The notes beneath the pieces were generated by a model. The model ran no database searches, was not told where the DNA came from, and was given only the letters and a program-made list of their open reading frames with translations. Positions 2,532-60,268 of a DNA stretch of 64,000 nucleotides are shown here, in pieces. Every line of letters begins with the position of its first letter. Position 1 is the first letter of the stretch. The DNA is from Bacteroidales bacterium. GTDB lineage: Bacteria > Bacteroidota > Bacteroidia > Bacteroidales > Paludibacteraceae. The DNA lies in contig SUWZ01000011.1 in the NCBI GenBank assembly GCA_015061185.1, positions 3,328 through 67,327 of the forward strand, read 5' to 3'. The translations under genes and the position numbers were made by a program.

Positions 2532-3227
2532 TTATGAAGCGCAAACCATCAGACCGCAAAGTAAGGCAATTCCAAAACTTAAAAATGTACCGGCAAGAAC
2601 ATATTCCGTTTTTGCAGTATCAGTATCTTTAAATCTTAAGATTGACTTAGCAGCAATAACAAACCCGATAGCTTCAAACTGACCAATAATTACAAAAATC
2701 ATGGTAAGCAATCGTTCCAAATTACCAATTAATCCACCTGCGTTCTTTATGTTACTACATGATTTTGACTCTCCAACATCATATTTTTTGAGTAACAATT
2801 TAATGAAAATATTGGTAGGTTTTATACAAATAAGAGTTGCTATTAGTAAAATAGGGATAGAAAAATTTTCACATTGGTCTATTAGATGTATAGGTAATTC
2901 AATTTGAGTCTCATATACAATAGAGATGAGAAGTAATATGCCTAAATGAAGTAGTTGATCTGCTAAAAAAACACCTAAACTATTGCGAAAATATAGTTTT
3001 ATAGAATCAATTATAAGATGAGTTAGAATTATTAAAATAGCATAAATTCCAAAATCAATAGATGGTATCAATAACCAGGCTATTAATCCCATAATAATAG
3101 AATGCACATAGAGAAACCAACATTTTATTTTTTTTGTCTCTTTTTGTTTGCAAAAGTAGTCGGTTTGTAAGTAGAAATCTCCAATAATATGTGTTAAAAG
3201 CAAACTAGACAGTAAATCGTTATTCAT
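2532..3227 (-). CDS. DUF3307 (SatC-like) multi-pass membrane protein
   Basis: N-terminal HIIGDFYLQT motif typical of DUF3307. Multiple hydrophobic helices. It lies 4 nt downstream of the satD-like gene. Confidence 0.8.
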   Translation of the reverse strand: MNNDLLSSLLLTHIIGDFYLQTDYFCKQKETKKIKCWFLYVHSIIMGLIAWLLIPSIDFGIYAILIILTHLIIDSIKLYFRNSLGVFLADQLLHLGILLLISIVYETQIELPIHLIDQCENFSIPILLIATLICIKPTNIFIKLLLKKYDVGESKSCSNIKNAGGLIGNLERLLTMIFVIIGQFEAIGFVIAAKSILRFKDTDTAKTEYVLAGTFLSFGIALLCGLMVCAS

Positions 3228-3231
3228 TAAA

Positions 3232-3879
3232 TTAAAATTTTATCCTTTCAAAATAGTTTAAAGCCTCTTCAATACAATACCACTGCGCTGAAGTAGTATG
3301 TTTGTTGACCCCAGCTTGTGAAATTTTCATCTCCTTGGCTATTTCACACTCTTTTTTAGATAGTAGTTTGTAAAATATAACTTCACTTTGCCTTTTTGTA
3401 GCATTGTTCATTATAGCATCGGTCAAAATAGCAATTGTATGCAAGGAGGAGCGATAAAAGGTGTTATTAATATTTATTTTTAATGTCCCCTTTTTGGGTG
3501 TTCTCATCTTCTCAACACTCCGCCCGGATAAGTAAATGGCTTCACCATCCATTATATTAGCCACTTTATCTATAATTCTCATTTCGCCGATACCAATTGC
3601 AATCCGAATACCATAGGTTTGAAATTTTTTATTTTCTAATGATCTATTCAATTGGGTAGATTTTATAAATGCTTTAATTATTAAAGCAATACGAAATGAA
3701 TCTACGGCATTAGGGATTGTACACTCAATATAATCTCCTTTTATTTGTCTCCCCCAAAAGCCTGGATATTTCGTCTCCAATAATTGAAACAATTCATCTA
3801 TTTTTCGTTTCAATTCAATTGTTCCCTCTTTTGAAATTGAGGTTGATGATATAATATCAGCTGAAATCGTTGCTTGCAT
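3232..3879 (-). CDS. SatD-family protein: nucleotidyl-cyclase-like N-domain plus C-terminal sigma70-r4/LuxR-like HTH
   Basis: ISADIISST, KGDYIECT and IRIAIGIGEM resemble class III cyclase/GGDEF palm motifs. The C-terminal ECEIAKEMKISQAGVNKH is HTH-like. SatD is typically paired with DUF3307. Confidence 0.75.
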   Translation of the reverse strand: MQATISADIISSTSISKEGTIELKRKIDELFQLLETKYPGFWGRQIKGDYIECTIPNAVDSFRIALIIKAFIKSTQLNRSLENKKFQTYGIRIAIGIGEMRIIDKVANIMDGEAIYLSGRSVEKMRTPKKGTLKININNTFYRSSLHTIAILTDAIMNNATKRQSEVIFYKLLSKKECEIAKEMKISQAGVNKHTTSAQWYCIEEALNYFERIKF

Positions 3880-3907: not shown

Positions 3908-4056
3908 GTATATTTATTCTTTCTTTTTGAAGTTGCGATTGATTTTTTTTTCTTATTTAGTCACAACAAATTCTATTTACAAATTGAGTAACTAAAACCA
4001 CTCTTGAGCAAATATATAAAATAAGTTAGCTCTTTTCGTATTTCTAATAATTACCT

Positions 4057-4190
4057 TAAATGGTTATAATTGCCATTTATAACCATATATAGTTATAATT
4101 ACTTATTATAACCAAAATCAGTTATAATTATATATTATAACCTTAAATAGTTATAATCGCCATTTATAACCTTTTTCAGTTAATAAAAGT
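4057..4190. repeat. Array B: 4 full plus 1 degenerate 29-bp units, same design and orientation as array A
   Basis: GTTATAA occurs at 4063, 4092, 4121 and 4150, with a degenerate copy at 4179. TTATAAC occurs at 4077, 4106, 4135 and 4164. Confidence 0.9.
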
Positions 4191-4284: not shown

Positions 4285-5574
4285 ATGAAATTATTTTTAA
4301 AAGGGGGAATATTTTGTATTTGTTCCTTATTGGTTAGTTCCTTAGGAGCGCAAACAACCAAAGAGGAAATGATGTTACACATCAACCAAACAGCAAGTAA
4401 CTACCGTGCTTATTCAACCGATTTTAAACCACAATCGAAAGTACCTAAGGGGTATCAGGCTTTCTACGTTAGTCACTACGGAAGACATGGGTCTCGCTAC
4501 CATTATTCGGCTACTGATTTTAAAAATATGTTGGAGATTTTGCAAAAAGCAGATTCTGCCAATGCTTTGACGGAGTTGGGAGTCAGTGTTAAAAATCGCT
4601 TTGCTAGAATCTATGAAGATGGCAAAATGAAGGCTGGAGATCTTACTCAGAAAGGGGTTGAGCAACATAAAGGCATTGCTCGTCGAATGGTGGAAAATTG
4701 TCCTAAAGTATTTAAAGGGGAGGCAAAAATCAGTGCTAAATCTTCCACATCCGTACGCTGTGTGCTGAGCATGAATGCTTTTTGTCAGGAGTTGAAAACT
4801 ATTAATCCGAAGCTTCAAATCACAAACGAAGCAAGTAAGCGTCTGATGTCCTACATCTGCTATGAAGAGAAAGAGGATCAAAACAAAAGAATGAACGATA
4901 CCTTATGGACTAAACCTTTTGGAGAATTGCATTATCGGTTAATTCATCCTTCAAGAATGATGAACGTTTTATTTAAAGACAAAGAGTATTTGGATAAAAA
5001 TATAGACTCTGTTGCCTTTATGCGCAAATTATATGATATTCACTCCAGTATGCAAGGAATGGATAGTTTAAATATCGATTTTAGTGATGTTTGGACAAAA
5101 GAGGAATTATACAACAATTGGCGAGTGCAAAATGCTTGGTGGTACGCCAATAGTGGTCCTTGTCCGCTTACTTTGTCTAAAAATCCATTGTTAGCTCGAA
5201 ACCTACTAAAGAATATTTTGGACGAAGCCAAAAAAGCTGTCGATGGGAAAGGGGATAACGCCACTCTTCGATTTGGACACGACATGGGTATTCTTCCTTT
5301 GGCTTCGCTGATGGGAATGCAAGGTTGTGATGTTAAAACTACTGATCTTGAAAATTTACATACTGTTTGGACTGATTTTAGAATCATTCCAATGGGAGCT
5401 AATATTCAATTGATTTTCTATCGTCATAAAAAGAGTAAAAATGTTTTAGTCAAGGCTCTACTAAACGAAAATGAGGTGACTTTACCTTTGAAAAGTGATA
5501 TTGCACCTTATTATAATTGGGAAGATTTTTACCAATATTATTCAGCTTTACTAAAAGAGATAGCTATAAAGTAA
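4285..5574 (+). CDS. Secreted histidine acid phosphatase (branch 2 histidine phosphatase)
   Basis: Signal peptide. RHGSRY catalytic motif. Downstream GHDMG (HD) motif. Confidence 0.8.
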   Translation: MKLFLKGGIFCICSLLVSSLGAQTTKEEMMLHINQTASNYRAYSTDFKPQSKVPKGYQAFYVSHYGRHGSRYHYSATDFKNMLEILQKADSANALTELGVSVKNRFARIYEDGKMKAGDLTQKGVEQHKGIARRMVENCPKVFKGEAKISAKSSTSVRCVLSMNAFCQELKTINPKLQITNEASKRLMSYICYEEKEDQNKRMNDTLWTKPFGELHYRLIHPSRMMNVLFKDKEYLDKNIDSVAFMRKLYDIHSSMQGMDSLNIDFSDVWTKEELYNNWRVQNAWWYANSGPCPLTLSKNPLLARNLLKNILDEAKKAVDGKGDNATLRFGHDMGILPLASLMGMQGCDVKTTDLENLHTVWTDFRIIPMGANIQLIFYRHKKSKNVLVKALLNENEVTLPLKSDIAPYYNWEDFYQYYSALLKEIAIK

Positions 5575-13536: not shown

Positions 13537-13727
13537 GAAGTTGTTTAAATTTTATTTCGAGCATATTTGAGAGAGATTTTTAAGGTTATTTTTATTATTT
13601 TTTTGCCGTTAATAGTGGACTATTATCAAAAAAGAATAATAAAAATAGCTTAAAAAGAATCTCAAAGATGCCGAAAATAAGAGAGTGAAACTCTAAAGTA
13701 TTTTTTCAATAAAATTTAAACAGCTTC
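13537..13727. mobile_element. MITE-like element, full copy, with about 20-bp terminal inverted repeats GAAGYTGTTTAAATTTTATT
   Basis: The left end is gaagttgtttaaattttatt. The right end is aataaaatttaaacagcttc. The interior is shared with 28403-28532. Confidence 0.6.
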
Positions 13728-14044
13728 TGAGTTAGTTTTGAAGATATTTTACACAGACTGATTTTATCAACGTGCATTTGTAATAAACCCACAAACAAAG
13801 CGAAACGTATTTATGTTTTCTATGACAATGGAACAAAATTGGAAAGTGAATTTTAGATAGGAGAGAAAGAATAGATAAAAAGGAATCCTAATCTAATTTA
13901 GGGATATAATCACAACCAATTATAACCATTGAATTACCTACAAAAAATATTCTCCAACTAAAGTAAACTCTACATTTTACTTTCAGGTAGGAAAAAGTAA
14001 CCAAAATTAGAATAGGAGATAGCATAAGCAAAACAAAAAAACAC

Positions 14045-32123: not shown

Positions 32124-32540
32124 CTGAGAATTCAATATTTTCAAATAATTTTATCATTCTACAGAATATACAAAATATATGAACCATTAGATTATTGGAG
32201 CGTTTGTATGGTTTGTATGAATTCTCGAACGCTGAGATTTCAATATTTTTCAGAGAGCCGTAAACTTCTACAGAATATTCAAAATAAATGAACCATTAGA
32301 ATATTGGAGCGTTTGTATGGTTTGTATGAATTCTCGAACACTGAGATTTCAATATTTTTTAGAGAACTGTACATTATACAAAATTATCAAAATATCAGAA
32401 ACACTAAACGACTAAACAAATTTAGAAATTCCGAACGCTGAGATTTCAATATTTTTTAGAGAACTGTACATTATACAAAATTATCAAAATATCAGAAACA
32501 TTAGACGATTAGACAGGTTGTGAGAATTCTGAAAATTCAG
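32124..32540 (+). repeat. Nested tandem repeat, about 4.5 units of 97-109 bp
   Basis: Units start with ctgaga(a/t)ttcaatatttt at 32124, 32232, 32341 and 32438. Units 1 and 2 share one variable half, and units 3 and 4 share another. Confidence 0.85.
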
Positions 32541-36201: not shown

Positions 36202-37578
36202 TTATTTCCAAAAATCTTGCATCTTTGAAATAGCATAAATTGGGCAGATAGCAACATTCCGGATTATTCCACTCTCCTTATCGCAATACTCTAACTTTCC
36301 AAAATTCTCTAAAGAACATCTAACTGCATCTGTTATTTTTTTCTCTTGCATAAACATCCACAAACTTTTCATGCCTCCTTGAGTGCCTGCCTTTACCTCT
36401 ATCGGCAATATGCGTTGCCTATGTCCAACTACATAATCCACTTCTGCCTGAGAGTTTTTTGCCTGTCTAACCCAATAAAACAAATCATGCCTGATATTTG
36501 GAGTCTGATAGCGCAAGTATTCAAGACCGACAATCATTTCTGCCACAGCTCCTTTATTTACAAGCTCCGCCGCACCCATTGTCAGTATCTGAGATGTTAT
36601 TTGCGTTATGTCCCCCATCGCCATATTGAGCAATCGCAACATAAGACCGGAGTCCAGTAGCAAATATTTTCTGTACGAATCATCAGCCTCACCGCCAAAA
36701 GGCAGTCCGTTTGCACTTGTATGTGTCACGGGGGTAAGTATTCCCGCCAAAGTCAACATTCCAAGAGCCTTTTTCACCTCTTCTGTCTTATATCCGCTTC
36801 CAACCTGAGAGCAGACAAACTTTTTTGTAGCCTGCACCGCCGCACTTCGCAACGTTTGACGAAGGAGCGTAGGATCAACTCTTTTCCTATATTTAGGAAA
36901 ATCATCTTCATAACTGACTATTATATCGTCTTGCACCTCTTGACATTGCAAAAAATCATGCGTCTCAACCCATTTTGCAACAGCCTCCGGCATTCCTCCC
37001 ACAAGCATATACACACGTAACAGACTCACCAATTTATCATGCAATGGTTCAGAGAGCGGACAAGAGAGCGTAGCTTGGTTTCGCACATCAATAAGCTGAT
37101 GCTCTCCGTTCGCTTTTAAAAACTCATCGAATGTCATCGGATACATAAACATCGAGTGGATACGTCCAACACCAAAAGTTGGCAGTTCATCTAATGCAAA
37201 TTCCAGCAACGACCCTGCTGCTATCACGTGCAGTTCAGGCATATCCTCCTTAAAGAAACGTAAGGACATAATCGCTTCCGGACACTCCTGTATTTCGTCC
37301 AAAAACAACAGAGTTGCTCCAGCCTTTATCGGTTTGCCACACATTGCTGCCATTTGTGGCAGTATTCGCGCAACGTCCAGATTATCTTTAAACAGCAACT
37401 TATATTCCGGTTGCTTTTCAAAGTTTATCTCCACGTAGTGTTCAAACGCATTGCCTAAGTGACGAACTGCTGTCGATTTCCCGACTTGACGCGCCCCTCT
37501 CAACAACACAGGCTTGTGATTATCGCGCGAAGCCCATTCAGATAAATAAGTATCTATTATTCTTTCGTAATACTTCAT
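36202..37578 (-). CDS. AAA+ ATPase with a C-terminal DUF4143 (PD-(D/E)xK-like) domain
   Basis: Walker A GARQVGKST, Walker B LLFLDEIQ, and C-terminal AEVDYVV...LPIEVKAG. Confidence 0.85.
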   Translation of the reverse strand: MKYYERIIDTYLSEWASRDNHKPVLLRGARQVGKSTAVRHLGNAFEHYVEINFEKQPEYKLLFKDNLDVARILPQMAAMCGKPIKAGATLLFLDEIQECPEAIMSLRFFKEDMPELHVIAAGSLLEFALDELPTFGVGRIHSMFMYPMTFDEFLKANGEHQLIDVRNQATLSCPLSEPLHDKLVSLLRVYMLVGGMPEAVAKWVETHDFLQCQEVQDDIIVSYEDDFPKYRKRVDPTLLRQTLRSAAVQATKKFVCSQVGSGYKTEEVKKALGMLTLAGILTPVTHTSANGLPFGGEADDSYRKYLLLDSGLMLRLLNMAMGDITQITSQILTMGAAELVNKGAVAEMIVGLEYLRYQTPNIRHDLFYWVRQAKNSQAEVDYVVGHRQRILPIEVKAGTQGGMKSLWMFMQEKKITDAVRCSLENFGKLEYCDKESGIIRNVAICPIYAISKMQDFWK

Positions 37579-37598: not shown

Positions 37599-37606
37599 CA
37601 AATATA
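37599..37606 (-). promoter_or_regulatory. -7 box TATATTTG for the ATPase at 36202-37578
   Basis: The plus strand reads CAAATATA 21 nt upstream of the ATG at 37578. Confidence 0.45.
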
Positions 37607-37619
37607 CATAATAGATTTT

Positions 37620-37720
37620 ATCCAAACAAATAATTTGCCGATTTTCAGAAAAATCCAAACAAATATTTTGCCAATTTTCGGAAAAATCCAAAGAAATAAA
37701 TTTTGACACTCCCCGAAAAA
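37620..37720. repeat. Three direct repeats with a 33-bp period upstream of the ATPase promoter
   Basis: atccaaacaaataatttgccgattttcagaaaa / atccaaacaaatattttgccaattttcggaaaa / atccaaagaaataaattttgacactccccgaaaaa. Confidence 0.8.
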
Positions 37721-37784: not shown

Positions 37785-40700
37785 CTACTGCACCGTTGCA
37801 ATCTTGTTAATCAAATCTTGATAGGTAGCCACCTTGTGATACTTGACATTGGCAGTGGAAATCGTGTTAAACAATTTTTCCGCACAGTCAATCTTTGCCT
37901 TTTCAATGGCTGACAAATCCATAGAAGACATAGAGCCTTTGGTTTCTGCTATAAAAAAGATATGTTTCACATCGTTCTTCTTCATGGCGATAGCCCAATC
38001 GGGTGCGTAGTTGCCTACGGGTGTCGGGATTTGGAAAGTGCGTGGCAACTTGGCATATACCACCACTTCGCTTGCCTCATCAAGGTCGTGGGCAAATTGG
38101 CGTTCTCCCTTGCTGTCGCTGAAGACATAGTCTGTAATGTGTTTCTTCGCTTCGTATGCTCTGTCAAAATCTGTCTTACTCTTTATCGTGAAGATGTCGC
38201 TATCATACTTTCCTTCTGTGATATTATAGTGAATATGTTCCACTATCATCGTTGATTTCTGCTCCTTGATGATGCTTATCACCTTGCGGATAAATTCTTC
38301 GGGATTATTTTTGAAGAGATAGAATTTGCTCTCCTTAATCCCTTGCAGAATCTTCACAACTGTACGACGAGTGAGATTTGTCCCTTTGGCAATGTCGCCC
38401 ACAAGGTCATATTTGACAGTTGAGGTACATACATCAGTCAGGGGTTTTGATTCTGAACGTGTGTTACCAAACTCTGTAACCTGAGTTTCATTTTGCGTTC
38501 CCTCCACCATCACATAACGGAGTTGTGTAACTTCTAATTCTGAATTGATATGCAGTATGGCATTCTTTATCAACTCTTCACTATCATAACTTACCTGATA
38601 GACATACTGATGATTTATCTCGTTCCAAAGTGCCTGAAACTCGGCTTTATTGAAGTTATCGTTCAATCTATTGACTGAGGTTGCAACCTTTTCTTCAACA
38701 AACATGTCGTTCAGTGCATTAGGGTCGAAGATTGAATTTATCAGTTTGAAGACTCCTTCGGAAATATGTTGCAACTTTTGCGGCAATGGAGCAACTGTAC
38801 CATTAGCCACTGCCTCACGATATTCGGGGGTGATATTCTTCTGCTCGTCAATATAACCGTTGTCCTCCAAATAGATAATAATGCGACTTGCTTCGGTTTC
38901 GGTAATAGCATGTGTCTCTTCTCCCATCTTGATTTGCTTGTCAATGAAATAGGTAACGGTTGCTTTAACCGCACGCTCACGCAACACATCACGTGTCTCC
39001 CGCTGCAAGGCTGAGGTAAAGTCGGCATAGCTTTCATTGGCTATCACTGTCAGTTTATTCACTTCATGCACATCCTCGCCCAATAGTTCGGCATCCATAC
39101 GAGTTCCGTGTTTATCCACACAAATACGCAATCCGCGTCCCACCTCCTGACGCTTGGAAGTAGTTGAGTTTGAGTGCCTCAGTGTACAAATTTGAAAAAC
39201 ATTCGGGTTATCCCACCCTTCACGCAAAGCAGAGTGAGAGAATATGAAACGTGTAGGCTCATCGAAACTTAACAAACGCTCCTTGTTCTTCAATATAAGT
39301 TCGTATGCTGAAATATCATCAGAAAGACCGCTCTTCTTCTCTATCTTGCCATCTACCACTCTGTTTGTCTTCTTGTCAATAGAGAAATATCCATTATGAA
39401 CGTCTTTGGGATAAAAACGTCGCAAATAGTCATTGTAGGGGTCTTCAAATATCGTAATTTCGTTATTTACCAATCTTGAATACTCCTCTTCAAATATCTT
39501 CTGGAAGATACCCTTCACTTCGTTACCTTGCTCGTCATAACTCTTGTACTTCGCCACCTCGTCTATAAAGAAAAGCGACAAACATTTGATACCGCGTTTG
39601 AAAAGTTGGCGTTCTTTCTCAAAGTGCGACATGATAGTTTCGCGAATTTGCACTCGCTGCATATTCAGTTCGTTGGTATCGCCTATGACCTCTCTTCTGC
39701 GTATGGTTGTTCCATTTAAGAATGTTACATAACCATTCCTATCAATTTCTGAAACAGTGAACCCTTCGTAGGCTGCCAAGCCGGACTCCTCCTGCAAATT
39801 GTCGCCAACACTGAAGTTTTTTGTCTTGCGAACAATGTTGCCTGATGCTGTTTTGACTTCAATTTCTAAGCGCGCCATAGGCGGCTGATTGTGCGACAAC
39901 ACTATATCGTCCAGATATAAATAACTGCTCGTTCCTCTCAAATTTTTCACCTCGAAGCCTTTCACTTGAATACGCTTCACCAACTTCTGACGGTAGGCAT
40001 CGAGTGCATCCAACGCATAGATCGTGTTGTGCCTGGTCTTGTGTGTAGCAGAATAGTTTAGCACAAACAATGGATTGAATCGCTTGATACCTTTCTGGGT
40101 AGCATCGCCCTCCATCTTCTGCGGCTCGTCCATAATGACAATAGGACGATTGGCTGCAATTACATCTATAGGACGGCGACTGCCAAACTCATCACGCTTG
40201 GAGTAGATTATCTTGCTCTCCTTGCTGCTTCCGCCCTCTTTCATAGAGGAGGCAAAGGCTTGCGTGTTGATAATCAACACATTCAGTCCGGAGTCCGACG
40301 AGTAACTGTCAAGTTGCTGCAAGTTTCCGCTGTTGTAAATGAATCGTCGCGCTTTCTTTCCGTAATGCTCCATAAAGTGTTCTTCGAGCATATCAAAACT
40401 TTTCGCAACCCCTTCTCGAATTGCAATACTTGGCACTACGATAATAAATTTGCTCCAACCATACTGCTTGTTCAGTTCAAACATGGTTTTGATATAAACG
40501 TAGGTTTTACCTGTGCCGGTTTCCATTTCAATGTCCAGATTTACATCACCCAAACCTTTGGAGAGCGAAGAAGAAGGCTCTATGTCGTTTCGGTTTTGTA
40601 TCGAGTTGATGTTTTTAAGCAACGTTTTCTCGTCCAGTTCCAGATTGTGGTTGCAGTAACCTGTGTCGCTGTCAAACATATTCTGATGCAAAACCTTGCC

Positions 40701-40817
40701 TTTGTCCATACGGTACTCCGCCGCCACCTTGTGCGACGGCTGTCCGTTGAAGACCGCCACCGTATTTTCTACAGCATCGGTCTGATATTGCTGAATCTTA
40801 AATTTGAATTTCATCAT
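37785..40817 (-). CDS. res: Type III restriction endonuclease subunit Res
   Basis: Helicase motifs METGTGKT and MDEPQK. C-terminal nuclease motif PDW...AETKG. The listed start at 40823 is TTG, and the first ATG is at 40817. Confidence 0.9.
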   Translation of the reverse strand: MMKFKFKIQQYQTDAVENTVAVFNGQPSHKVAAEYRMDKGKVLHQNMFDSDTGYCNHNLELDEKTLLKNINSIQNRNDIEPSSSLSKGLGDVNLDIEMETGTGKTYVYIKTMFELNKQYGWSKFIIVVPSIAIREGVAKSFDMLEEHFMEHYGKKARRFIYNSGNLQQLDSYSSDSGLNVLIINTQAFASSMKEGGSSKESKIIYSKRDEFGSRRPIDVIAANRPIVIMDEPQKMEGDATQKGIKRFNPLFVLNYSATHKTRHNTIYALDALDAYRQKLVKRIQVKGFEVKNLRGTSSYLYLDDIVLSHNQPPMARLEIEVKTASGNIVRKTKNFSVGDNLQEESGLAAYEGFTVSEIDRNGYVTFLNGTTIRRREVIGDTNELNMQRVQIRETIMSHFEKERQLFKRGIKCLSLFFIDEVAKYKSYDEQGNEVKGIFQKIFEEEYSRLVNNEITIFEDPYNDYLRRFYPKDVHNGYFSIDKKTNRVVDGKIEKKSGLSDDISAYELILKNKERLLSFDEPTRFIFSHSALREGWDNPNVFQICTLRHSNSTTSKRQEVGRGLRICVDKHGTRMDAELLGEDVHEVNKLTVIANESYADFTSALQRETRDVLRERAVKATVTYFIDKQIKMGEETHAITETEASRIIIYLEDNGYIDEQKNITPEYREAVANGTVAPLPQKLQHISEGVFKLINSIFDPNALNDMFVEEKVATSVNRLNDNFNKAEFQALWNEINHQYVYQVSYDSEELIKNAILHINSELEVTQLRYVMVEGTQNETQVTEFGNTRSESKPLTDVCTSTVKYDLVGDIAKGTNLTRRTVVKILQGIKESKFYLFKNNPEEFIRKVISIIKEQKSTMIVEHIHYNITEGKYDSDIFTIKSKTDFDRAYEAKKHITDYVFSDSKGERQFAHDLDEASEVVVYAKLPRTFQIPTPVGNYAPDWAIAMKKNDVKHIFFIAETKGSMSSMDLSAIEKAKIDCAEKLFNTISTANVKYHKVATYQDLINKIATVQ

Positions 40818-40824
40818 ATTCAAT

Positions 40825-41540
40825 TATGAATGATGAATTAGGAGTTAGGAATTAAGTGATTCCCGAGTTGTTTTTGTTATGCTACTTAAAAGCTTTTTTA
40901 ATTCTTCACAATCACTATTTATGGAATATTACTCTCTGCCATAATGATTATTTTTGCAAAGATAGGATAATTCCTAATCCCTCACTCCTAATTCCTAATT
41001 ATTTATGAATGATGAATTAGGAGTTAGGAATTAAGTGATTCCCGAGTTGTTTTTGTTATGCTACTTAAAAGCTTTTTTAATTCTTCACAATCACTATTTA
41101 TGGAATATTACTCTCTGCCATAATGATTATTTTTGCAAAGATAGGATAATTCCTAATCCCTCACTCCTAATTCCTAATTATTTATGAATGATGAATTAGG
41201 AGTTAGGAATTAAGTGATTCCTGAGTTGTTTTTGTTATGCTACTTAATAGCTTTTTTAATTCTTCACAATCACTATTTATGGAATATTACTCTCTGCCAT
41301 AATGATTATTTTTGCGAAGATAGGATAATTCCTAATCCCTCACTCCTAATTCCTAATTATTTATGAATGATGAATTAGGAGTTAGGAATTAAGTGATTCC
41401 CGAGTTGTTTTTGTTATGCTACTTAATAGTTTTTTTAATTCTTCACAATCACTATTTATGGAATATTACTCTCTGCCATAATGATTATTTTTGCGAAGAT
41501 AGGATAATTCCTAATCCCTCACTCCTAATTCCTAATTATT
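40825..41540. repeat. Four tandem 179-bp units, each an internally deleted copy of the four-helix-bundle gene cassette
   Basis: Units begin at 40825, 41004, 41183 and 41362. A fifth unit at 41541 runs into the intact gene. Each unit joins the gene's 3' end, its 5' end and promoter, and the heptamer blocks. Confidence 0.95.
40957..40964 (-). promoter_or_regulatory. -7 box TATCTTTG inside repeat unit 1, pointing toward res
   Basis: Same box as the four-helix-bundle gene promoter. Also intact in unit 2 (41136-41143). Units 3 and 4 read TATCTTCG. Confidence 0.4.
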
Positions 41541-41560
41541 TATGAATGATGAATTAGGAG

Positions 41561-41923
41561 TTAGGAATTAAGTGATTCCTGAGTTGTTTTTGTTATGCTA
41601 CTTAATAGCTTTTTTAATTCTTCACAATCACTATTTATGGAATTATACTCCTTTTCGTTAATGTATTCGGTTGCAAGTAATAAATCCAACCAATACTTAC
41701 TCTCTGCAGCTTCTTTATAAGCAATATACATTTTGGCAAGAAAATCCTTTTTGCTGATTCCGCACAATGCTTCATTTACGTTTGCTCCAATACTTGTTCC
41801 CGAACGAAGAAGTTGTTTAGATAATACAAACTCCCTTTTCTCTTCACTAAGATATTGGTATAACCGAACAATGCGTATAGCAAAATCTCTACTCTTATCC
41901 TTAATAATGTTATTCTCTGCCAT
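41561..41923 (-). CDS. Four-helix-bundle protein (23S rRNA intervening-sequence protein / Avd-like family)
   Basis: 120 aa. FAIRIVRLYQYL...QLLRSGTSIGANVNEA...SKKDF..K..IA.KEA.ES.YWL is the hallmark pattern of this family. Confidence 0.85.
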   Translation of the reverse strand: MAENNIIKDKSRDFAIRIVRLYQYLSEEKREFVLSKQLLRSGTSIGANVNEALCGISKKDFLAKMYIAYKEAAESKYWLDLLLATEYINEKEYNSINSDCEELKKLLSSITKTTQESLNS

Positions 41924-41939
41924 AATGTATCTTTATTTG

Positions 41940-41947
41940 CAAAGATA
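41940..41947 (-). promoter_or_regulatory. -7 box TATCTTTG for the four-helix-bundle gene
   Basis: The plus strand reads CAAAGATA 17 nt upstream of the ATG at 41923. Confidence 0.45.
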
Positions 41948-41981
41948 GCATAATTCCTAATTCCTAACTCCTAATTCCTAA

Positions 41982-43904
41982 TTATATTACTCTACACGTA
42001 GTTTCCGGTGAATAATGCTTAAAAATCTGCTCGAAGTTGTCTATCACATTATCATTGACTGCCGAGGCGTCACGCATGACAAAATAGACCGGCTTCCGCT
42101 TGGCAATCTCCGTAATGGTTTTCTCATCAACATCTTTATCGAAAACAGCCATAAGATAACCATCATCCACATTAAATACCGTAATATCATTCCTAATTCC
42201 TAACTCCTCATTTCTAATTGAAACAGAGAGTTCTATTCCGAGGTCGAGCATCACTTGAAAGAGCAAATCCTCATTGGTGCGGTCTGACTTTACATTTTCA
42301 TTGAAGAGCGAACTCATGCTAAACTCTTGTGGCGTGTAATAAACATCTTCCATATTAGAGGAGTCGAGCTTCAATACTCGGAAACCGATATCCAATTTGG
42401 AATTAGGAGTTGGGAGTGAGGAATTGTTTTCATTCTTCTTTCCTAATTCCTCATTAATTTTCTTTCCTGCACGACGGATACGCTCCTTGCCTATCTCACA
42501 GATATTCTTGTAACCGGCTTTGTAGGCTTCGCTCTTCTCTTCAGTCTTTTCTGGCAACTGCACCATAATGAATTTACGATTACCGCCATCTTCGGCATTT
42601 AGTTTCATTACGGCGTGGGCGGTAGTAGCGGAACCCGAGAAGAAGTCGAGAATGATGTCGTTACAATTAGTATATAAAGCAAGACATCTTTGAATTAAAT
42701 CAACGGGTTTAGGGTATTCAAAATACGATTTACCACCAAATAGTAACTTAAGTGCCTGCGATGCTTGTTGTGAATGACCGACTTCTTCGTGTTTCCAAAT
42801 AGACATAGGTGTAACACCTTGTTTTACCTCAGACAAGAATCGTTTAAGTCTTGGAACATTATCACCATTTGCACCAAACCAAATGCGATTATCGGCAATC
42901 ATTTCTTGGAATCGTTCTTTTGTATATAACCAACATCTACCACTTGGAGGTAGTATAACTCGACCGCTTGGAAGAGTTAGTGGATAAACTTTTGAATTAA
43001 CAACAGGACCAACCGTAGTATTATCACTCTGCCAAGGTCCTCGTTGGTCATTGTCAGGATTTGAGTATCGAGATGTATTTTCTTCTGTTCTCGGCAAACC
43101 ATTGCAAACGGTTATATCTATATTTTTTCCATATGCCAAAATATAGTCGTGACTATACGAAAAATGTTTCTTAAGACTAATTGGAGCAAAAGACCTCTCC
43201 CATACTACTTGTGCCAAAAAATTATGCTCACCAAATATCTCGTCTGTAATGTTTTTTAGATTTTTACCCTCATTATCATCAATTGAAATAAAAATAACCC
43301 CATCCTCTGTAAGCAAATCTCTCGCCACCTTCAAACGAGGATAAATCATATTGAGCCAATTGGTATGGAAACGACCGTTGCTTTCGGTATTTCTTGTATA
43401 TACTTTTTCATCCATAATAATATTACCTTCTTCATCTCTAAAAGAAGAACGATCAGCATCATTAGCCGCATTTTCAGCAAAATCATCATTATACACGAAG
43501 TCGTTTCCCGTATTATAAGGTGGGTCGATGTAAATCATCTTCACCTTGCTCAAATAGGTTTCACGCAATACTTTGAGTACATCAAGGTTGTCTCCCTCTA
43601 TGTAAAGATTTTGTGTATTGTCGAAATCCACACTCTCCTCACGGCAAGGGCGGAGTGTCATAGTTGTAGGAGTGTTAGCCAAGCGGACAGATGCGCGCTT
43701 GTCTGGCCAAGTGAACTGATAACGTTCCTCTCCCTCTGCAATGATTTCGTTGGATAACTCTGCTTGCAGTTTCTCAAAGTCGATAGCCAGTTCCGGCTTA
43801 CCATCCTTGCCCAAACGTTCCGTCACGCAATTAGGAAACAGCCGGGCAATCTTCTGTGTGTTAGAGCCTATCACATCGTGGCTCTGCATTTTCAGCCTCT
43901 CCAT
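41982..43904 (-). CDS. mod: Type III R-M DNA methyltransferase subunit Mod (beta-class N6-adenine)
   Basis: IYIDPPYNTGNDF (motif IV) precedes ILDFFSGSATTAHA (motif I). The conserved C-terminus is FRVLKLDSSN...DLLFQVMLDLG. Confidence 0.9.
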   Translation of the reverse strand: MERLKMQSHDVIGSNTQKIARLFPNCVTERLGKDGKPELAIDFEKLQAELSNEIIAEGEERYQFTWPDKRASVRLANTPTTMTLRPCREESVDFDNTQNLYIEGDNLDVLKVLRETYLSKVKMIYIDPPYNTGNDFVYNDDFAENAANDADRSSFRDEEGNIIMDEKVYTRNTESNGRFHTNWLNMIYPRLKVARDLLTEDGVIFISIDDNEGKNLKNITDEIFGEHNFLAQVVWERSFAPISLKKHFSYSHDYILAYGKNIDITVCNGLPRTEENTSRYSNPDNDQRGPWQSDNTTVGPVVNSKVYPLTLPSGRVILPPSGRCWLYTKERFQEMIADNRIWFGANGDNVPRLKRFLSEVKQGVTPMSIWKHEEVGHSQQASQALKLLFGGKSYFEYPKPVDLIQRCLALYTNCNDIILDFFSGSATTAHAVMKLNAEDGGNRKFIMVQLPEKTEEKSEAYKAGYKNICEIGKERIRRAGKKINEELGKKNENNSSLPTPNSKLDIGFRVLKLDSSNMEDVYYTPQEFSMSSLFNENVKSDRTNEDLLFQVMLDLGIELSVSIRNEELGIRNDITVFNVDDGYLMAVFDKDVDEKTITEIAKRKPVYFVMRDASAVNDNVIDNFEQIFKHYSPETTCRVI

Positions 43905-43989
43905 TATGAATTTGAAAACTTAATTTAGCGAAAATCAAGTCATCGGACTTCTGATAACTTTTATTTGTTAGTTTAAGTTTTACAAAGAC

Positions 43990-44300
43990 ACAAAAAAAGC
44001 GTGAAGCCCCACTGTCGCTCGCTCCACGGTTAGAGGCTCTGGTAAGCCCGAATGTCCGAAACGAGCAACGAGAGCCCACGCTGATGCATATAACAAACTA
44101 CACTCGCCCTATGTTGCCATTGGCATACAAGTACACCAATGGCTCTAAGGCATAGCGAGATATGTATGTAACACACCTACGGGGCATTCACGTTGCTTTG
44201 TTTTTTGACATTCTTTTGAAATTTACCAGATTTCTAACCGTCAAAACCAAAGCGTAGTAAACGCCTTTCAAATATGTCCTTGCCTTATGTATAGTACACA
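43990..44300 (-). ncRNA. Candidate structured RNA or 5' leader upstream of mod
   Basis: GC-rich, stop-ridden in all frames. A 57-nt hairpin lies at 44103-44159 and mutually exclusive helices at 43998-44082. The minus strand ends in a U7 run (43992-43998). A TAAATTTG box lies at 44309-44316 on the minus strand. The boundaries are guesses. Confidence 0.3.
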
Positions 44301-44392
44301 AAGCACTACAAATTTAAGGAAATCTATTTTCCTATACAAAAAATAGACGTTTTTTTAAGGCAAATTTTCAAAGCCCGGTTTGCAAAAGCCTC

Positions 44393-44433
44393 AAAAAAAA
44401 CTTTGCCCACAGATATGATGTTTGTGGGCAAAG
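44393..44433 (-). terminator. Rho-independent terminator (minus strand)
   Basis: 11-bp stem ctttgcccaca / tgtgggcaaag. On the minus strand it is followed by T8 (plus strand A8 at 44393-44400). Confidence 0.7.
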
Positions 44434-44601
44434 CTAAAAAATTATCTCGAAGGGATTTTACTCCCATTCCTGTTCTAAACCTTCTATCAATTCAGCATCT
44501 GGCTTTGCTAAAAAGAGCATGCCTAACATGTTTGCAATATAACAGAACCAAAATACATAATCGTCAAAACCTAAACATAAAATGCAACTTATCATCATCA
44601 A

Positions 44602-44777
44602 GGTGTGTATTTCAGATATTTCAAAACACTAAAAAGATATGTTTTCCAATGTTTCTTATTGTCAATTTGGTGCGTTTTCCGATATTTACAAACTCAGAAA
44701 GGTGCGTTTTCCGATAATTTAAAGTATAATAAAGGTGCGTTTTCCAATATTTACAAACCAAAAAAGGTGCGTTTTCC
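44602..44777. repeat. Downstream array: about 6 GGTGCGTTTTCC-type repeats with a 32-33-bp period
   Basis: Cores at 44669, 44701, 44734 and 44766. Degenerate copies at 44602 and about 44636. Confidence 0.85.
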
Positions 44778-44835
44778 ATAACTAAAAAAGCAGACTTACT
44801 AAAAGCCTGCTCTAACATGCTGCCTCGCATTGACA

Positions 44836-46194
44836 TTAGTCCAAAAATTGCGTTATAACATTAGACTCGTTCTGAAAGAACATTACATAATAGATTGGAA
44901 TATAAGTAATTCCTTTCTTTGTATAAACCTTCTGCTCATTAGATAGCACATAGGCTCTTTTTACGTTGTACTCGTCGTTTGTCAGAAACTTATTCAATGC
45001 ACTGTGGACGGTATAATCCTTTCCGGACTTCACCTCTATCGGGATATTTGACAAATTATCCACATCATCAATCAGATAGTCCACCTCTCCGTTTTTCTTG
45101 TTGTCGTAATAGTACAAATTATATCCGTGCGCCTTCAACTCTTGCGCCACCACTGTTTCATAAACCGAGCCGAGGTTTATGCTTCTTTCATCAGACATTA
45201 TTGCAGATATGTTGTTGCGGTAGAACAAGCCCGACAAAATACCCACATCGTTTAGATAGAGCTTCAGCAAATTCTTTCCGCAGTTTTCGGACAACGGATA
45301 GGTTGGAGTGCTGATAGCCTTCACGTCCAAAGTTACGCCAGCTGAAATTAGATAATCAAACTCGTCCAGATAGTCGTCACTTCTCTTCCAGCCTTTGTCT
45401 TCAATATCCTTCACCACAACTCTCTTCTTCTTATTTTCAAGGTTGGACGGAATCATATCAAAAACACGGCGAATCTTCAATCGCTTATTATGCTGCTCTT
45501 CATACTTTGACGCATCCACAGCGTATAAATTGTGGGTCTCTTTCTGCACCGACCTGAAACGTTCTACATTTCGGCTCTCGACGAAAATCTCCACCGCTCT
45601 CGGCAATCCGCCTACCAGAAGATACTTCTTAAAGAGGTCCATTATTTTGCTGTGCATCGCATCTGGCAGGGCCTGGCTGTTTTCAAAACACTCCCTCATC
45701 TCCCCAACCGCAACTTCACCCACTCCGTTAGCATACAAAAACTCCTCAAAGTCCAAAGGGTACATGTGCACCACCTCCAGACTGCCTATCGGCAAAGACT
45801 GTATTTGCTTTAGTGTCACGCCAAGCAAAGAGCCGCTGGCTATATAGGTAAACCTGCCCTCCTTCATCAAAAACTTCACAAGGGTGAGAAGATGGTCGTA
45901 AGCCTGTATCTCGTCAATAAAGACAAGCGTATTGGACTTATCCTTCAACTTGTTGCCTGCCACAACGCTGAGAGCCATGTAAAAATCTTTTGTGGTCTTG
46001 GCCTCCGCAAAGATTCTGTCGCCCAACTTATCCTCCTCCATATTGATTTCCACATAATTGGAGAACATACGTCGCCCAACCCATCGAATTATATAGGACT
46101 TTCCTATTTGTCGGGCACCATCAACCAACATCATTCTGTCTGAATTTGATGTCAGATACTCCTCTATCCTTTTGGTTATCTTTCTATACAACAT
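44836..46194 (-). CDS. AAA+ ATPase with a C-terminal DUF4143 (PD-(D/E)xK-like) domain, paralogue of 36202-37578
   Basis: Walker A GARQIGKSY, Walker B LVFIDEIQ, and C-terminal GEVDYLI...IPIEVKSG. Confidence 0.85.
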   Translation of the reverse strand: MLYRKITKRIEEYLTSNSDRMMLVDGARQIGKSYIIRWVGRRMFSNYVEINMEEDKLGDRIFAEAKTTKDFYMALSVVAGNKLKDKSNTLVFIDEIQAYDHLLTLVKFLMKEGRFTYIASGSLLGVTLKQIQSLPIGSLEVVHMYPLDFEEFLYANGVGEVAVGEMRECFENSQALPDAMHSKIMDLFKKYLLVGGLPRAVEIFVESRNVERFRSVQKETHNLYAVDASKYEEQHNKRLKIRRVFDMIPSNLENKKKRVVVKDIEDKGWKRSDDYLDEFDYLISAGVTLDVKAISTPTYPLSENCGKNLLKLYLNDVGILSGLFYRNNISAIMSDERSINLGSVYETVVAQELKAHGYNLYYYDNKKNGEVDYLIDDVDNLSNIPIEVKSGKDYTVHSALNKFLTNDEYNVKRAYVLSNEQKVYTKKGITYIPIYYVMFFQNESNVITQFLD

Positions 46195-46216
46195 GTTATT
46201 ACCTGTTTATCAGGTG

Positions 46217-46224
46217 CAAATATA
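46217..46224 (-). promoter_or_regulatory. -7 box TATATTTG for the ATPase at 44836-46194
   Basis: The plus strand reads CAAATATA 23 nt upstream of the ATG at 46194. Confidence 0.45.
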
Positions 46225-46242
46225 ATATATTTTTTTGTAAAA

Positions 46243-46581
46243 GGTGCGTTTTCCCATATTTTTTACTATTAATTTGGTGCATTTTCCTATAATTTTAAAA
46301 CCTTTAAAGGTGCGTTTTCATATATTTTTCACTATTAATTTGGTGCGTTTTCATATAATTTCAAAACCTAAAGGTGCGTTTTCCTATATTTTCAACTATT
46401 AATTTGGTGCATTTTCATATAATTTTAAAACCTTTAAAGGTGCGTTTTCATATATTTTTCACTATTAATTTGGTGCGTTTTCATATAATTTCAAAACCTA
46501 AAAGGTGCGTTTTCCTATATTTTCAACTATTAATTTGGTGCATTTTCCTATAATTTTAAAACCTTTAAAGGTGCGTTTTCC
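46243..46581. repeat. Upstream array: 11 GGTGC(G/A)TTTTC(C/A) repeats with a 31-33-bp period
   Basis: Cores at 46243, 46276, 46309, 46342, 46373, 46406, 46439, 46472, 46504, 46537 and 46570. Two unit types alternate, and there is a higher-order repeat of about 131 bp. Confidence 0.95.
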
Positions 46582-59643: not shown

Positions 59644-60268
59644 AAAACAAAACAGTAAATAAATTAATAATACATAAGGAAATTCAATTAAAACAAAAGA
59701 TAAGTACAAACAATTCTTAACCTATTTTACAAACTTTGTAGCTAAAGAAAATCCTTATAAAACACTCTGCAAAGATAGTAAAAACAAAATAAATAAAAGA
59801 CATTTAAGAAATTGTTTTAATTTATTTCGACTCTATTTGAGAAAATTGTTAAAGGAGGGGTTCTATAAATCCATTTCACGGAATTTTTGAATTTATTTCC
59901 AATAAATAGTGTAAATAAGGGATTCTAACCCTTAAAATTAGTTAAACAAGTAATAAATTTTAGAAAATATGTTGCATAACATAAAAATACAACATATATT
60001 TGCACTGTGTTTTTCATGGTATTAGATTTAAGGTTAGAGAGATGGGATGTCGTGATGACATCCTTCTTTAGTTTTATGAGGTTCACACAAACAAAATGGC
60101 AACATTACGAATCGTGGTAAGTTCAATAAATTCACCGTTTTAATTAAGAAAAAAAAATCGTGAAGTAAAAAAACTCTAAATTCGCGAAATGAACTTATAA
60201 AAACCCACCAAGAGTAAAAAATTACCAAAAATAGAAACAAAACATTTTACCATACAAGTCAAAAACAC

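Follow-up and report, generated by a model that had tools for sequence, protein, structure and literature searches.

What purpose is served by tandem direct repeats that are attached to an ATPase gene? The question is raised by a 64-kb stretch (64,000 nucleotides; hereafter the window) of the Bacteroidales contig SUWZ01000011.1, which carries two genes for DUF4143 ATPases, ATPase-1 and ATPase-2, each preceded by direct repeats with a period of 33 bp. An earlier note on this DNA had described the arrays and suggested three roles for them: autoregulatory or loading sites for the ATPase, an origin-like iteron field of an integrated element and a processed repeat RNA. Here, the repeats are compared across the orthologues and distant relatives of both genes. 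They probably constitute a phased operator array at the promoter of each DUF4143 ATPase-nuclease, and the sequence comparisons point to the ATPase itself as the most likely binder.

The array upstream of ATPase-2

46243-46581, minus strand: ATPase-2 upstream array, 11 direct copies of GGAAAAYGCACC (coding-strand reading), period 33 bp
46217-46224, minus strand: -7 box of ATPase-2, TATATTTG, Bacteroidota type, read from the sequence
44836-46194, minus strand: ATPase-2, AAA_14 plus DUF4143, 452 residues, a PDC-S01 match with intact Walker A, Walker B and nuclease motifs

The motif GGTGCRTTTTCM (at most one mismatch) is found 15 times in the window, always on the plus strand, versus 1.34 expected matches, and none of 100 shuffled sequences reached 15 matches. 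All 15 copies flank ATPase-2, and the rest of the window is devoid of the motif. Eleven copies are located upstream of the gene and start at positions 46243, 46276, 46309, 46342, 46373, 46406, 46439, 46472, 46504, 46537 and 46570, so that the motif scan bears out the earlier count of 11 copies between 46243 and 46581, upstream of the -7 box. The box itself follows the proximal repeat at a distance of 18 nt and precedes the ATG by 30 nt. Tandem Repeats Finder resolves the upstream array into periods of 33 bp (9.6 copies, 72% matches), 66 bp (5.2 copies, 89% matches) and 130 bp (2.6 copies, 96% matches). Because of these three periods, the two alternating sub-types and the super-repeat that had been noticed by eye (then given as 131 bp, here ∼130 bp) are regarded as real.

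Phased repeats in the ATPase-1 and ATPase-2 subfamilies

36202-37578, minus strand: ATPase-1, AAA_14 plus DUF4143, 458 residues, a paralogue of ATPase-2 (28-29% identity) that matches PDC-S01
37620-37699, minus strand: putative ATPase-1 operator array, three copies of TTATTTSTTTGGAT exactly 33 bp apart
37599-37606, minus strand: ATPase-1 -7 box, TATATTTG; the proximal repeat ends 14 nt before the box

ATPase-1 is preceded by exactly three copies of TTATTTSTTTGGAT (37620, 37653 and 37686, minus strand), in agreement with the three repeats of 33-bp period reported earlier, and the motif is found nowhere else in the window. The conserved core among ATPase-1 orthologues is TTATTTGTTTGGA. The ATCGG(A/C)AAA-like core that the two arrays had been said to share is literally present in the window, but in ATPase-1 orthologues it falls in the low-information spacer and is uninformative.

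To extend the comparison, a protein-guided scan was made with one genome per species, which yielded 80 loci with ATPase-2 orthologues (74-98% identity) from Paludibacteraceae, Bacteroidaceae, Prevotellaceae, Muribaculaceae, Rikenellaceae, Odoribacteraceae and other families. For relatives of ATPase-1 (65-100% identity), metagenomes were scanned, and with the window included 81 loci were obtained. The survey of DUF4143 loci across Bacteroidota that the earlier note had proposed gave a uniform picture. In nearly all loci of the ATPase-2 subfamily, the gene is immediately preceded by phased direct copies, most often three, of (ata)GGAAAACGCA(CC/GT), and the DNA beyond the repeats, further upstream, is unrelated between loci. 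The copy number is exactly three in 42 of the 80 loci and two or four in 29; in the ATPase-1 subfamily, 57 of the 81 loci contain exactly three copies. Adjacent copies are spaced by exactly 33 bp in 182 cases in the ATPase-2 subfamily and in 178 cases in the ATPase-1 subfamily.

The repeats are also fixed relative to the core promoter. In the ATPase-2 subfamily, 65 of the 80 loci have a gap of 17-19 nt between the end of the proximal motif and a TAnnTTTG box, and in 75 the box is positioned 27-31 nt ahead of the ATG. In the ATPase-1 subfamily, the gap between the proximal copy and the box is 14-15 nt in 72 of the 81 loci. The two motifs are mutually exclusive, each being restricted to its own subfamily. 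Within 507 kb from the 80 genomes, 263 copies of the ATPase-2 motif (at most one mismatch) occur within 700 nt upstream of the gene, versus 38 elsewhere (20 just downstream, 4 within the gene, 5 at other same-strand positions and 9 on the opposite strand). Likewise, 244 copies of the ATPase-1 motif are upstream and 21 elsewhere in 400 kb.

The phasing was also detected with no motif defined beforehand. When the best self-similarity lag was determined over the upstream 175 nt, a lag of 31-35 bp was obtained for 92% and 96% of the upstream regions in the two subfamilies, compared with 8-12% of coding and flank controls. Information profiles reveal ∼20-24 conserved bases per 33-bp unit (TTTTATAGGAAAACGCAssTTTTT and aaTTATTTsTTTGGATwwTttC). 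Core positions reach ∼2 bits, and spacer positions ∼0-0.3 bits at a fixed spacer length. Because the cores are conserved while the spacers are nearly information-free yet constant in length, selection appears to act on the core and on the phasing. By these comparisons, the loci display what characterizes an operator array, that is, conserved sites at a fixed position relative to the promoter with diverged flanks.

No conserved partner or regulator gene was found beside the cassette; the largest neighbor cluster is present in only 7 of the 80 ATPase-2-type loci, and at least one of its members is itself a DUF4143 paralogue, the orthologue of ATPase-1 in L002 (a locus syntenic with the window). 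Only two further paralogues were seen in the retrieved flanks. The cassette consists of a solitary gene and its repeats and is found in unrelated contexts.

The long array of ATPase-2 departs from the three-copy pattern. The window and four loci (L001-L004) form a set of syntenic Paludibacteraceae-type loci, in which the number of upstream copies is 4 (L003), 8 (L001), 9-10 (L002), 11 (window) and 17-18 (L004). Since 4-18 copies are found among near-identical syntenic loci, the 11-copy array is likely to be one state of a fast-changing expansion of a triplet. Judged from these alignments, it is a recent, lineage-specific tandem expansion of the canonical three-copy operator of the family. In both subfamilies, other lineages independently acquired arrays of 5-8 copies, and such expansions are restricted to a few of them.

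An ATPase-1-type gene is also present in a cultured type strain, Phocaeicola salanitronis DSM 18170 (L288; CP002530.1, 3230423-3234826), where it is inserted inside a glycosyltransferase cluster. Positions 1400-1500 of this locus contain the canonical triplet of TTATTTCCTTGGA repeats, spaced by 33 bp, together with a TATATTTG box, which would make the three-repeat locus of this strain a convenient experimental model.

Distant relatives and the divergence of motif and protein

Distant relatives (24-65% identity) were sampled by two profile-guided scans of viral and proviral contigs, together with six plasmid loci; an extra protein search, for which a diverse profile was used, yielded nothing but Holdemanella-type sequences and added little diversity. 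Relatives from Bacillota, Pseudomonadota and Chlamydiota have, ahead of the gene, between two and five direct repeats spaced by 32-33 bp, with a motif specific to the clade. The motifs are GAAAAATGTGTTAA in Holdemanella biformis, AAAAATGCGATTTTGTGGTAAA in Agathobacter rectalis, TTTATGCGCATAAAAA in Vibrio and Acinetobacter and ATTTATCC in Criblamydia. Further clades, given here by motif, use TTGAAAAGTCA, GGAAAAGTGT, GAAAAAGTGCAAAAAT, TTATTTCTCGGATTT, CTATTCTATTACA, CTTGTATTTCTAAAGCA and TTCATTCATTTTATGTGT, and Vescimonas shares the phased-repeat architecture with a different motif. The best lag is 31-35 bp in 69% of the distant loci, versus 6% of controls, and the same range holds for 19 of another 25 protein clusters (defined at ≥70% identity).

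When representatives of the clades are placed on a tree, related proteins have similar motifs. The ATPase-2 clade and its neighbors have GAAAAnGY-type cores, and ATPase-1 and its sister clade have TTATTTnTnnGGAT-type cores. At a finer scale, motif variants of the ATPase-1 subfamily form monophyletic blocks on the protein tree.

The position of the repeats relative to promoter elements varies among clades. In Bacillota-type loci (L161-171), the motif contains the -35 hexamer (TTGAAA, 17 nt, TATAAT), and an additional copy is located between the -10 element and the ribosome-binding site, in the 5' leader. In two Bacteroidota clades (L173 and L176), one copy overlaps the -7 box. Across this range of sequences, phased repeats are a family-wide hallmark, whose canonical unit, as read from the alignments, is three direct repeats at 32-33 bp, or about three helical turns, with the proximal copy abutting or overlapping the core promoter.

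The ATPase-nuclease protein

Both window ATPases consist of AAA_14 and DUF4143 domains according to Pfam (AAA_14, E = 3.6e-23; DUF4143, E = 2.6e-23) and are matched by the PADLOC PDC-S01 hidden Markov models PDLC04792 (E = 2e-177, ATPase-2) and PDLC04786 (E = 3e-139). They belong to the PDC-S01 / DUF4143 AAA+ ATPase family (COG1373). The Walker A (GARQxGK[ST]), Walker B (DEIQ) and D...ExK motifs are invariant in both paralogues, with D372, E387 and K389 forming the nuclease motif of ATPase-2. DUF4143 is assigned by Pfam to the PD-(D/E)xK superfamily (PMC3424549). PDC-S01, an ATPase fused to a PD-(D/E)xK domain, ranks fourth in frequency among defense systems across prokaryotes, as an unvalidated candidate (PMC12988326), and has been reported as the commonest single defense locus in rumen genomes (PMC12988326, PMC13356809).

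An AlphaFold2 model of ATPase-2 (predicted local distance difference test score (pLDDT) 80.6, predicted template modeling score 0.84) contains an AAA+ core (residues ∼1-160), a helical lid (∼160-235) and a nuclease domain (∼317-440). The intervening segment (∼240-315, pLDDT 44-84) is built from a helix, an insertion, a second helix and a β-hairpin in a winged-helix-like arrangement, which makes a DNA-binding domain plausible in the model. Among PDB structures, the fold is matched best by human ORC1 and by the archaeal Orc1/Cdc6 heterodimer bound to origin DNA (E = 2e-6 to 5e-6, template modeling score 0.23-0.31), followed at only marginally worse E-values by Clp, RuvB, NLR, MuB and other AAA+/STAND proteins. 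Sequence and profile searches of the PDB with the ATPases gave no matches, the Pfam scan called no helix-turn-helix (HTH) domain in the window ATPases, and NCBIfam offered no names for the proteins tested.

The array downstream of ATPase-2

44787-44813, minus strand: terminator-like hairpin of the intrinsic type, 11 pairs followed by a T-run, between the ATPase-2 stop codon and the downstream repeats
44602-44777, minus strand: ATPase-2 downstream array, four exact and two degenerate copies of the ATPase-2 motif, in the same orientation and 32-34 bp apart
44458-44584, minus strand: 3' remnant of a gene for a 153-residue membrane protein, with the last ∼40 codons and the terminator kept

A second array is located on the far side of ATPase-2, where about six copies had been expected from the earlier reading of the sequence and six were found. 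The exact copies lie at 44669, 44701, 44734 and 44766, and the degenerate copies are GGTGTGTATTTC at 44602-44613 and GATATGTTTTCC at 44636-47. These repeats had been assigned to the 3' untranslated region (UTR) of the ATPase-2 transcript. They are most likely outside it, because the terminator hairpin at 44787-44813, whose columns are invariant in L001-L004, precedes the repeats.

The downstream array is common to the window, L001, L002 and L004, while the L003 contig ends after the second copy; the wider family lacks it. In L001, L002 and L004, the array is followed by a TAAATTTG box and a gene for a 153-residue predicted membrane protein that has no Pfam match. Comparison of window positions 44458-44584 with L001 positions 4614-5186 reveals a 446-bp deletion at 44584 (L001 segment 4614-5059), which removed the promoter and 5' part of this gene from the window. 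The strong terminator at 44393-44433 belongs to the truncated membrane-protein gene. Because the array of the relatives directly fronts the membrane-protein promoter, it is best read as a second operator set that would tie the neighboring gene to the regulator of ATPase-2. Titration or looping may be alternative roles.

Proposed autoregulation by the ATPase

Sequence comparison establishes the conservation, phasing and promoter linkage of the repeats, the parallel divergence of motif and protein and the lack of a partner gene. For a promoter-locked, phased and clade-specific element that travels with a solitary gene, the simplest reading is that the ATPase is its own binder. Of the three roles suggested at the outset, autoregulatory or loading sites are strongly favored by this comparative evidence (promoter locking, clade motifs and no partner).

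In the proposed mechanism, one protomer or dimer of the ATPase would use its predicted winged helix to occupy each 33-bp repeat, and a bipartite contact is suggested by the ∼24 conserved bases of each unit. The AAA+ modules would assemble cooperatively on the repeats, and the assembled oligomer would control transcription of its own gene. The gene, together with its promoter and operator, would be a self-contained cassette whose dose is controlled and which functions regardless of genomic context. Through this loop, a potentially toxic nuclease-ATPase could adjust its own dose at any site to which the cassette moves. The self-regulation is more likely to be repression than activation, because copies in several clades overlap the -35 element, the 5' leader or the -10/-7 box. 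We infer the direction of regulation, and likewise the effect of extra copies, which could be titration or stronger repression.

Several observations weigh against autoregulation by the ATPase. The identity of the binder is one that we infer from comparative sequence data. The winged-helix assignment depends on a model segment of moderate confidence (residues 240-315, pLDDT 44-84), and this segment failed when modeled alone (pLDDT 51) and was left unused. About one-fourth of the distant clades lack clear 33-bp phasing. The proximal site of both subfamilies, at about -33 to -45, fits activation as well as repression. The parallel divergence of motif and protein could partly reflect co-inheritance of the gene with its promoter. 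The copy numbers are derived from short-read metagenome-assembled genomes, in which mis-assembly may distort them. Finally, the 3' CC/GT alleles of the ATPase-2-type motif are spread across the protein tree, and both can occur in the same promoter. Because they ignore the tree, fine-scale covariation of specificity is absent in this subfamily. No cluster of residues discriminates CC from GT alleles among the ATPase-2-type proteins, and the CC/GT endings, which do not track the protein tree, are no evidence for specificity switching within the subfamily. The co-variation of repeat and protein that the earlier note had sought accordingly holds for paralogue and clade, but not for these alleles.

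Alternative explanations

The arrays might instead serve for docking or sequestration: the ATPase would bind, but the arrays would store it as an inactive DNA-bound oligomer or titrate it, with array length setting the dose. Precedents exist in incA iterons and datA, which titrate their initiators. The 11-18 copies of the expanded loci exceed the needs of an operator, and their number shifts quickly between near-identical loci. A second array on the far side of the gene, the ORC/Cdc6-like fold and the intact nuclease motif are also compatible with storage. However, the norm for the family is only a triplet whose distance from the core promoter is fixed, as in regulatory sites, the expansions are limited to a few lineages, and the downstream array of the relatives fronts another promoter. 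We regard docking as unlikely. A bolder version, which we consider still more doubtful, is a cis-acting DNA 'antidote' or docking platform, in which the PDC-S01 nuclease would be stored inactive as a phased oligomer on its own locus and released or re-targeted by infection, and array length (3-18 copies, at one side of the gene or at both) would be a fast-evolving dose dial. If true, it would provide a DNA-repeat analogue of iteron 'handcuffing' or of Type III toxin-antitoxin RNA repeats in an abundant defense-candidate family.

Alternatively, a separate transcription factor encoded elsewhere in the genome could use the repeats without any binding by the ATPase. The binding domain of the ATPase is a prediction, and fine covariation between allele and protein is absent in the ATPase-2 subfamily, both of which would suit such a factor. 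Yet each protein clade has its own motif while the three-copy, 33-bp geometry is kept across four phyla, and no gene is conserved next to the cassette, whose contexts are unrelated. Because each clade would need its own unlinked, co-transferred factor with an identical site geometry, a separate factor is disfavored, with about the same small likelihood as the antidote.

The second role suggested in the earlier note, origin iterons of an integrated element with the ORC/Cdc6-like ATPase as initiator, is very improbable. The best fold matches are indeed ORC1 and archaeal Orc1/Cdc6 on origin DNA, and the flanking of the gene by direct repeats is reminiscent of P1 (incC-repA-incA) and F (incB-repE-incC). 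However, the E-values of ORC/Cdc6 are just marginally ahead of those of Clp, RuvB and NLR AAA+ proteins. The Orc1/Cdc6 analogy drawn earlier is apt at the level of the protein fold. Homologues were found on only 60 of 72,556 plasmids. The genes are solitary chromosomal paralogues in unrelated contexts, with two within 10 kb in the window, and their arrays are locked 14-18 nt from the -7 box. Moreover, the protein has a conserved nuclease domain, and the period is 33 bp versus the ∼22 bp typical of iterons. The loci do not qualify as iteron-controlled replicons, since the protein is not a Rep protein and the chromosomal arrays abut promoters; no search was aimed at an unwinding element or DnaA boxes.

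A processed repeat RNA of the Type III toxin-antitoxin or CRISPR (clustered regularly interspaced short palindromic repeats) kind, the third suggested role, is more improbable still. Tandem ∼33-nt units beside a nuclease-domain protein look superficially like ToxI/ToxN, and Bacillota-type loci have one copy in the 5' leader. In Bacteroidales, however, all copies are upstream of the conserved -7 box, and folding of either strand is no better than that of shuffled sequences (z +1.94 and +0.68). The repeats have no Rfam match, and the 'spacers' themselves recur in the 66-bp and 130-bp super-repeats with 89-96% identity. The ATPase is not a member of the ToxN, AbiQ or Cas families. Neither array nor protein has the defining features of a ToxIN-like Type III toxin-antitoxin system, nor does the array have those of CRISPR, with no Cas protein among the window open reading frames (ORFs) scanned with Pfam.

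A generic family of repetitive extragenic palindromic (REP) sequences or miniature inverted-repeat transposable elements (MITEs), or neutral slippage, unrelated to the ATPase, would account for the unstable copy number but is hardly credible, as core and exact spacing are kept while the spacers drift and more than 90% of the copies in 0.9 Mb of related loci are upstream of an ATPase gene. The outcome that would have spoken for such a family, repeats spread independently of the ATPases, was not observed: the window motif occurs only around ATPase-2, and copies in related loci are almost only upstream. In the 64-kb window and these 0.9 Mb, the repeats do not behave as dispersed REP or MITE elements.

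Other features of the window and related loci

The two DUF4143 genes of the window are separated by a 6.5-kb Type III restriction-modification block (37843-44381) with res, 179-bp repeats, a 23S_rRNA_IVP-family (IVP) gene and mod. It is absent from L002 (5259-5440), where the two DUF4143 cassettes are directly adjacent. Because the block is missing in this syntenic locus, the region is considered a variable defense island. The 179-bp tandem repeat (40824-41650, 4.6 copies, 98% identity) begins right where the Type III res ORF (37785-40823) has its 5' end and extends into the 3' end of the IVP gene (41561-41923).

A second case of repeat-flanked genes was found near the start of the window. Arrays at 2274-2412 and 4053-4173, each with four to five units of 29-bp period and the palindromic pair TTATAACC-N7-GGTTATAA, lie on both sides of a two-gene operon. 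The operon ORFs (3232-3879 and 2532-3227, both on the minus strand) encode a 215-residue protein and a DUF3307 protein. The 215-residue protein has no significant family and only a weak GerE/LuxR HTH match (E = 0.036).

A ∼190-bp element at 13537-13728, which occurs twice near the ATPase locus of L004 (882-1075 and 4749-4883), looks like a MITE-type small mobile element. A 109-bp tandem repeat (32156-32394, 2.2 copies, 89% identity) is located between annotated ORFs. The only Rfam match in the window is a FopS-family Bacteroidetes small RNA at 60007-60073 on the plus strand (RF04319, 70.6 bits). A link between this RNA and the ATPases was rejected because it sits upstream of an adjacent radical-SAM/UPF0004 gene.

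Many metagenome contigs among L001-L160 end 100-500 bp from the ATPase gene (e.g. L003, L026, L037, L047 and L059). Assemblies may break at repeat arrays or at multi-copy paralogues.

Comparison with known systems

The literature searches agree with the statement in the earlier note that no such system had been described. The searched literature describes no cis-element, DNA specificity or regulation for PDC-S01 and makes no mention of repeats linked to DUF4143 genes, of the motif strings or of direct repeats of 33 bp in Bacteroides.

The closest layouts are those of plasmids P1 (incC-repA-incA) and F (incB-repE-incC), in which direct repeats for the gene's own product overlap the promoter and mediate autorepression, and an array beyond the gene titrates the protein. 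The DUF4143 loci likewise have direct repeats at the promoter and, at ATPase-2, a second array beyond the gene, and repeat number, which matters in the plasmids, may matter here too. In contrast, the DUF4143 protein is an AAA+-nuclease rather than a Rep initiator, the period is 33 rather than ∼22 bp, the loci occur as multiple paralogues on chromosomes and seldom on plasmids, and they show no sign of an origin.

DnaA controls its own expression through DnaA boxes at its promoter, and clusters of sites such as datA titrate it. With DnaA and with archaeal Orc1/Cdc6 and its origin recognition boxes (ORBs), the DUF4143 ATPases share an AAA+ module, a lid and repeated sites by their own gene, and the DNA-binding domain of those proteins may have a counterpart in the putative winged helix. 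However, the similarity to Orc1/Cdc6 is at the fold level only, with no detectable sequence relationship, and the ATPases do not belong to that family. Unlike ORBs, the repeats are direct and promoter-locked rather than inverted around an unwinding element. The DUF4143 ATPases also differ from Orc1/Cdc6 and DnaA in their additional C-terminal PD-(D/E)xK nuclease.

Regulators of the MalT and SARP types are nucleotide-dependent, oligomerizing ATPases that bind several direct repeats abutting the -35 element. Phased direct repeats at the promoter and an ATPase, whose binding is predicted here, are common to both cases. MalT- and SARP-type proteins, however, activate other operons through LuxR- or OmpR-type DNA-binding domains at shorter periods and have no nuclease, whereas the only evident target of the DUF4143 ATPases is their own gene, plus one neighbor in one lineage. 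BrxR/CapW proteins of the WYL type are dedicated repressors of defense systems, encoded by separate genes and acting at inverted-repeat operators. They resemble the model proposed here, in which promoter operators would control a potentially toxic candidate defense gene. By contrast, no separate regulator gene is conserved at the DUF4143 loci, where regulator and effector appear to be one polypeptide.

The conserved three-repeat architecture offers a first concrete handle on the PDC-S01 family. It predicts sequence-specific DNA binding by these ATPase-nucleases and self-contained autoregulation, and it supplies a likely recognition sequence for each clade, from which binding, reporter and structural experiments can now be designed. 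Annotators gain a DNA signature for the promoters of the family. As a type of element, a phased operator or iteron-like array that probably mediates autoregulation is nothing new. What appears undescribed, and sets these loci apart from the systems compared above, is that such an array is attached to the DUF4143 family, the rigid three-repeat, 33-bp geometry across phyla and the putative fusion of regulator and nuclease.

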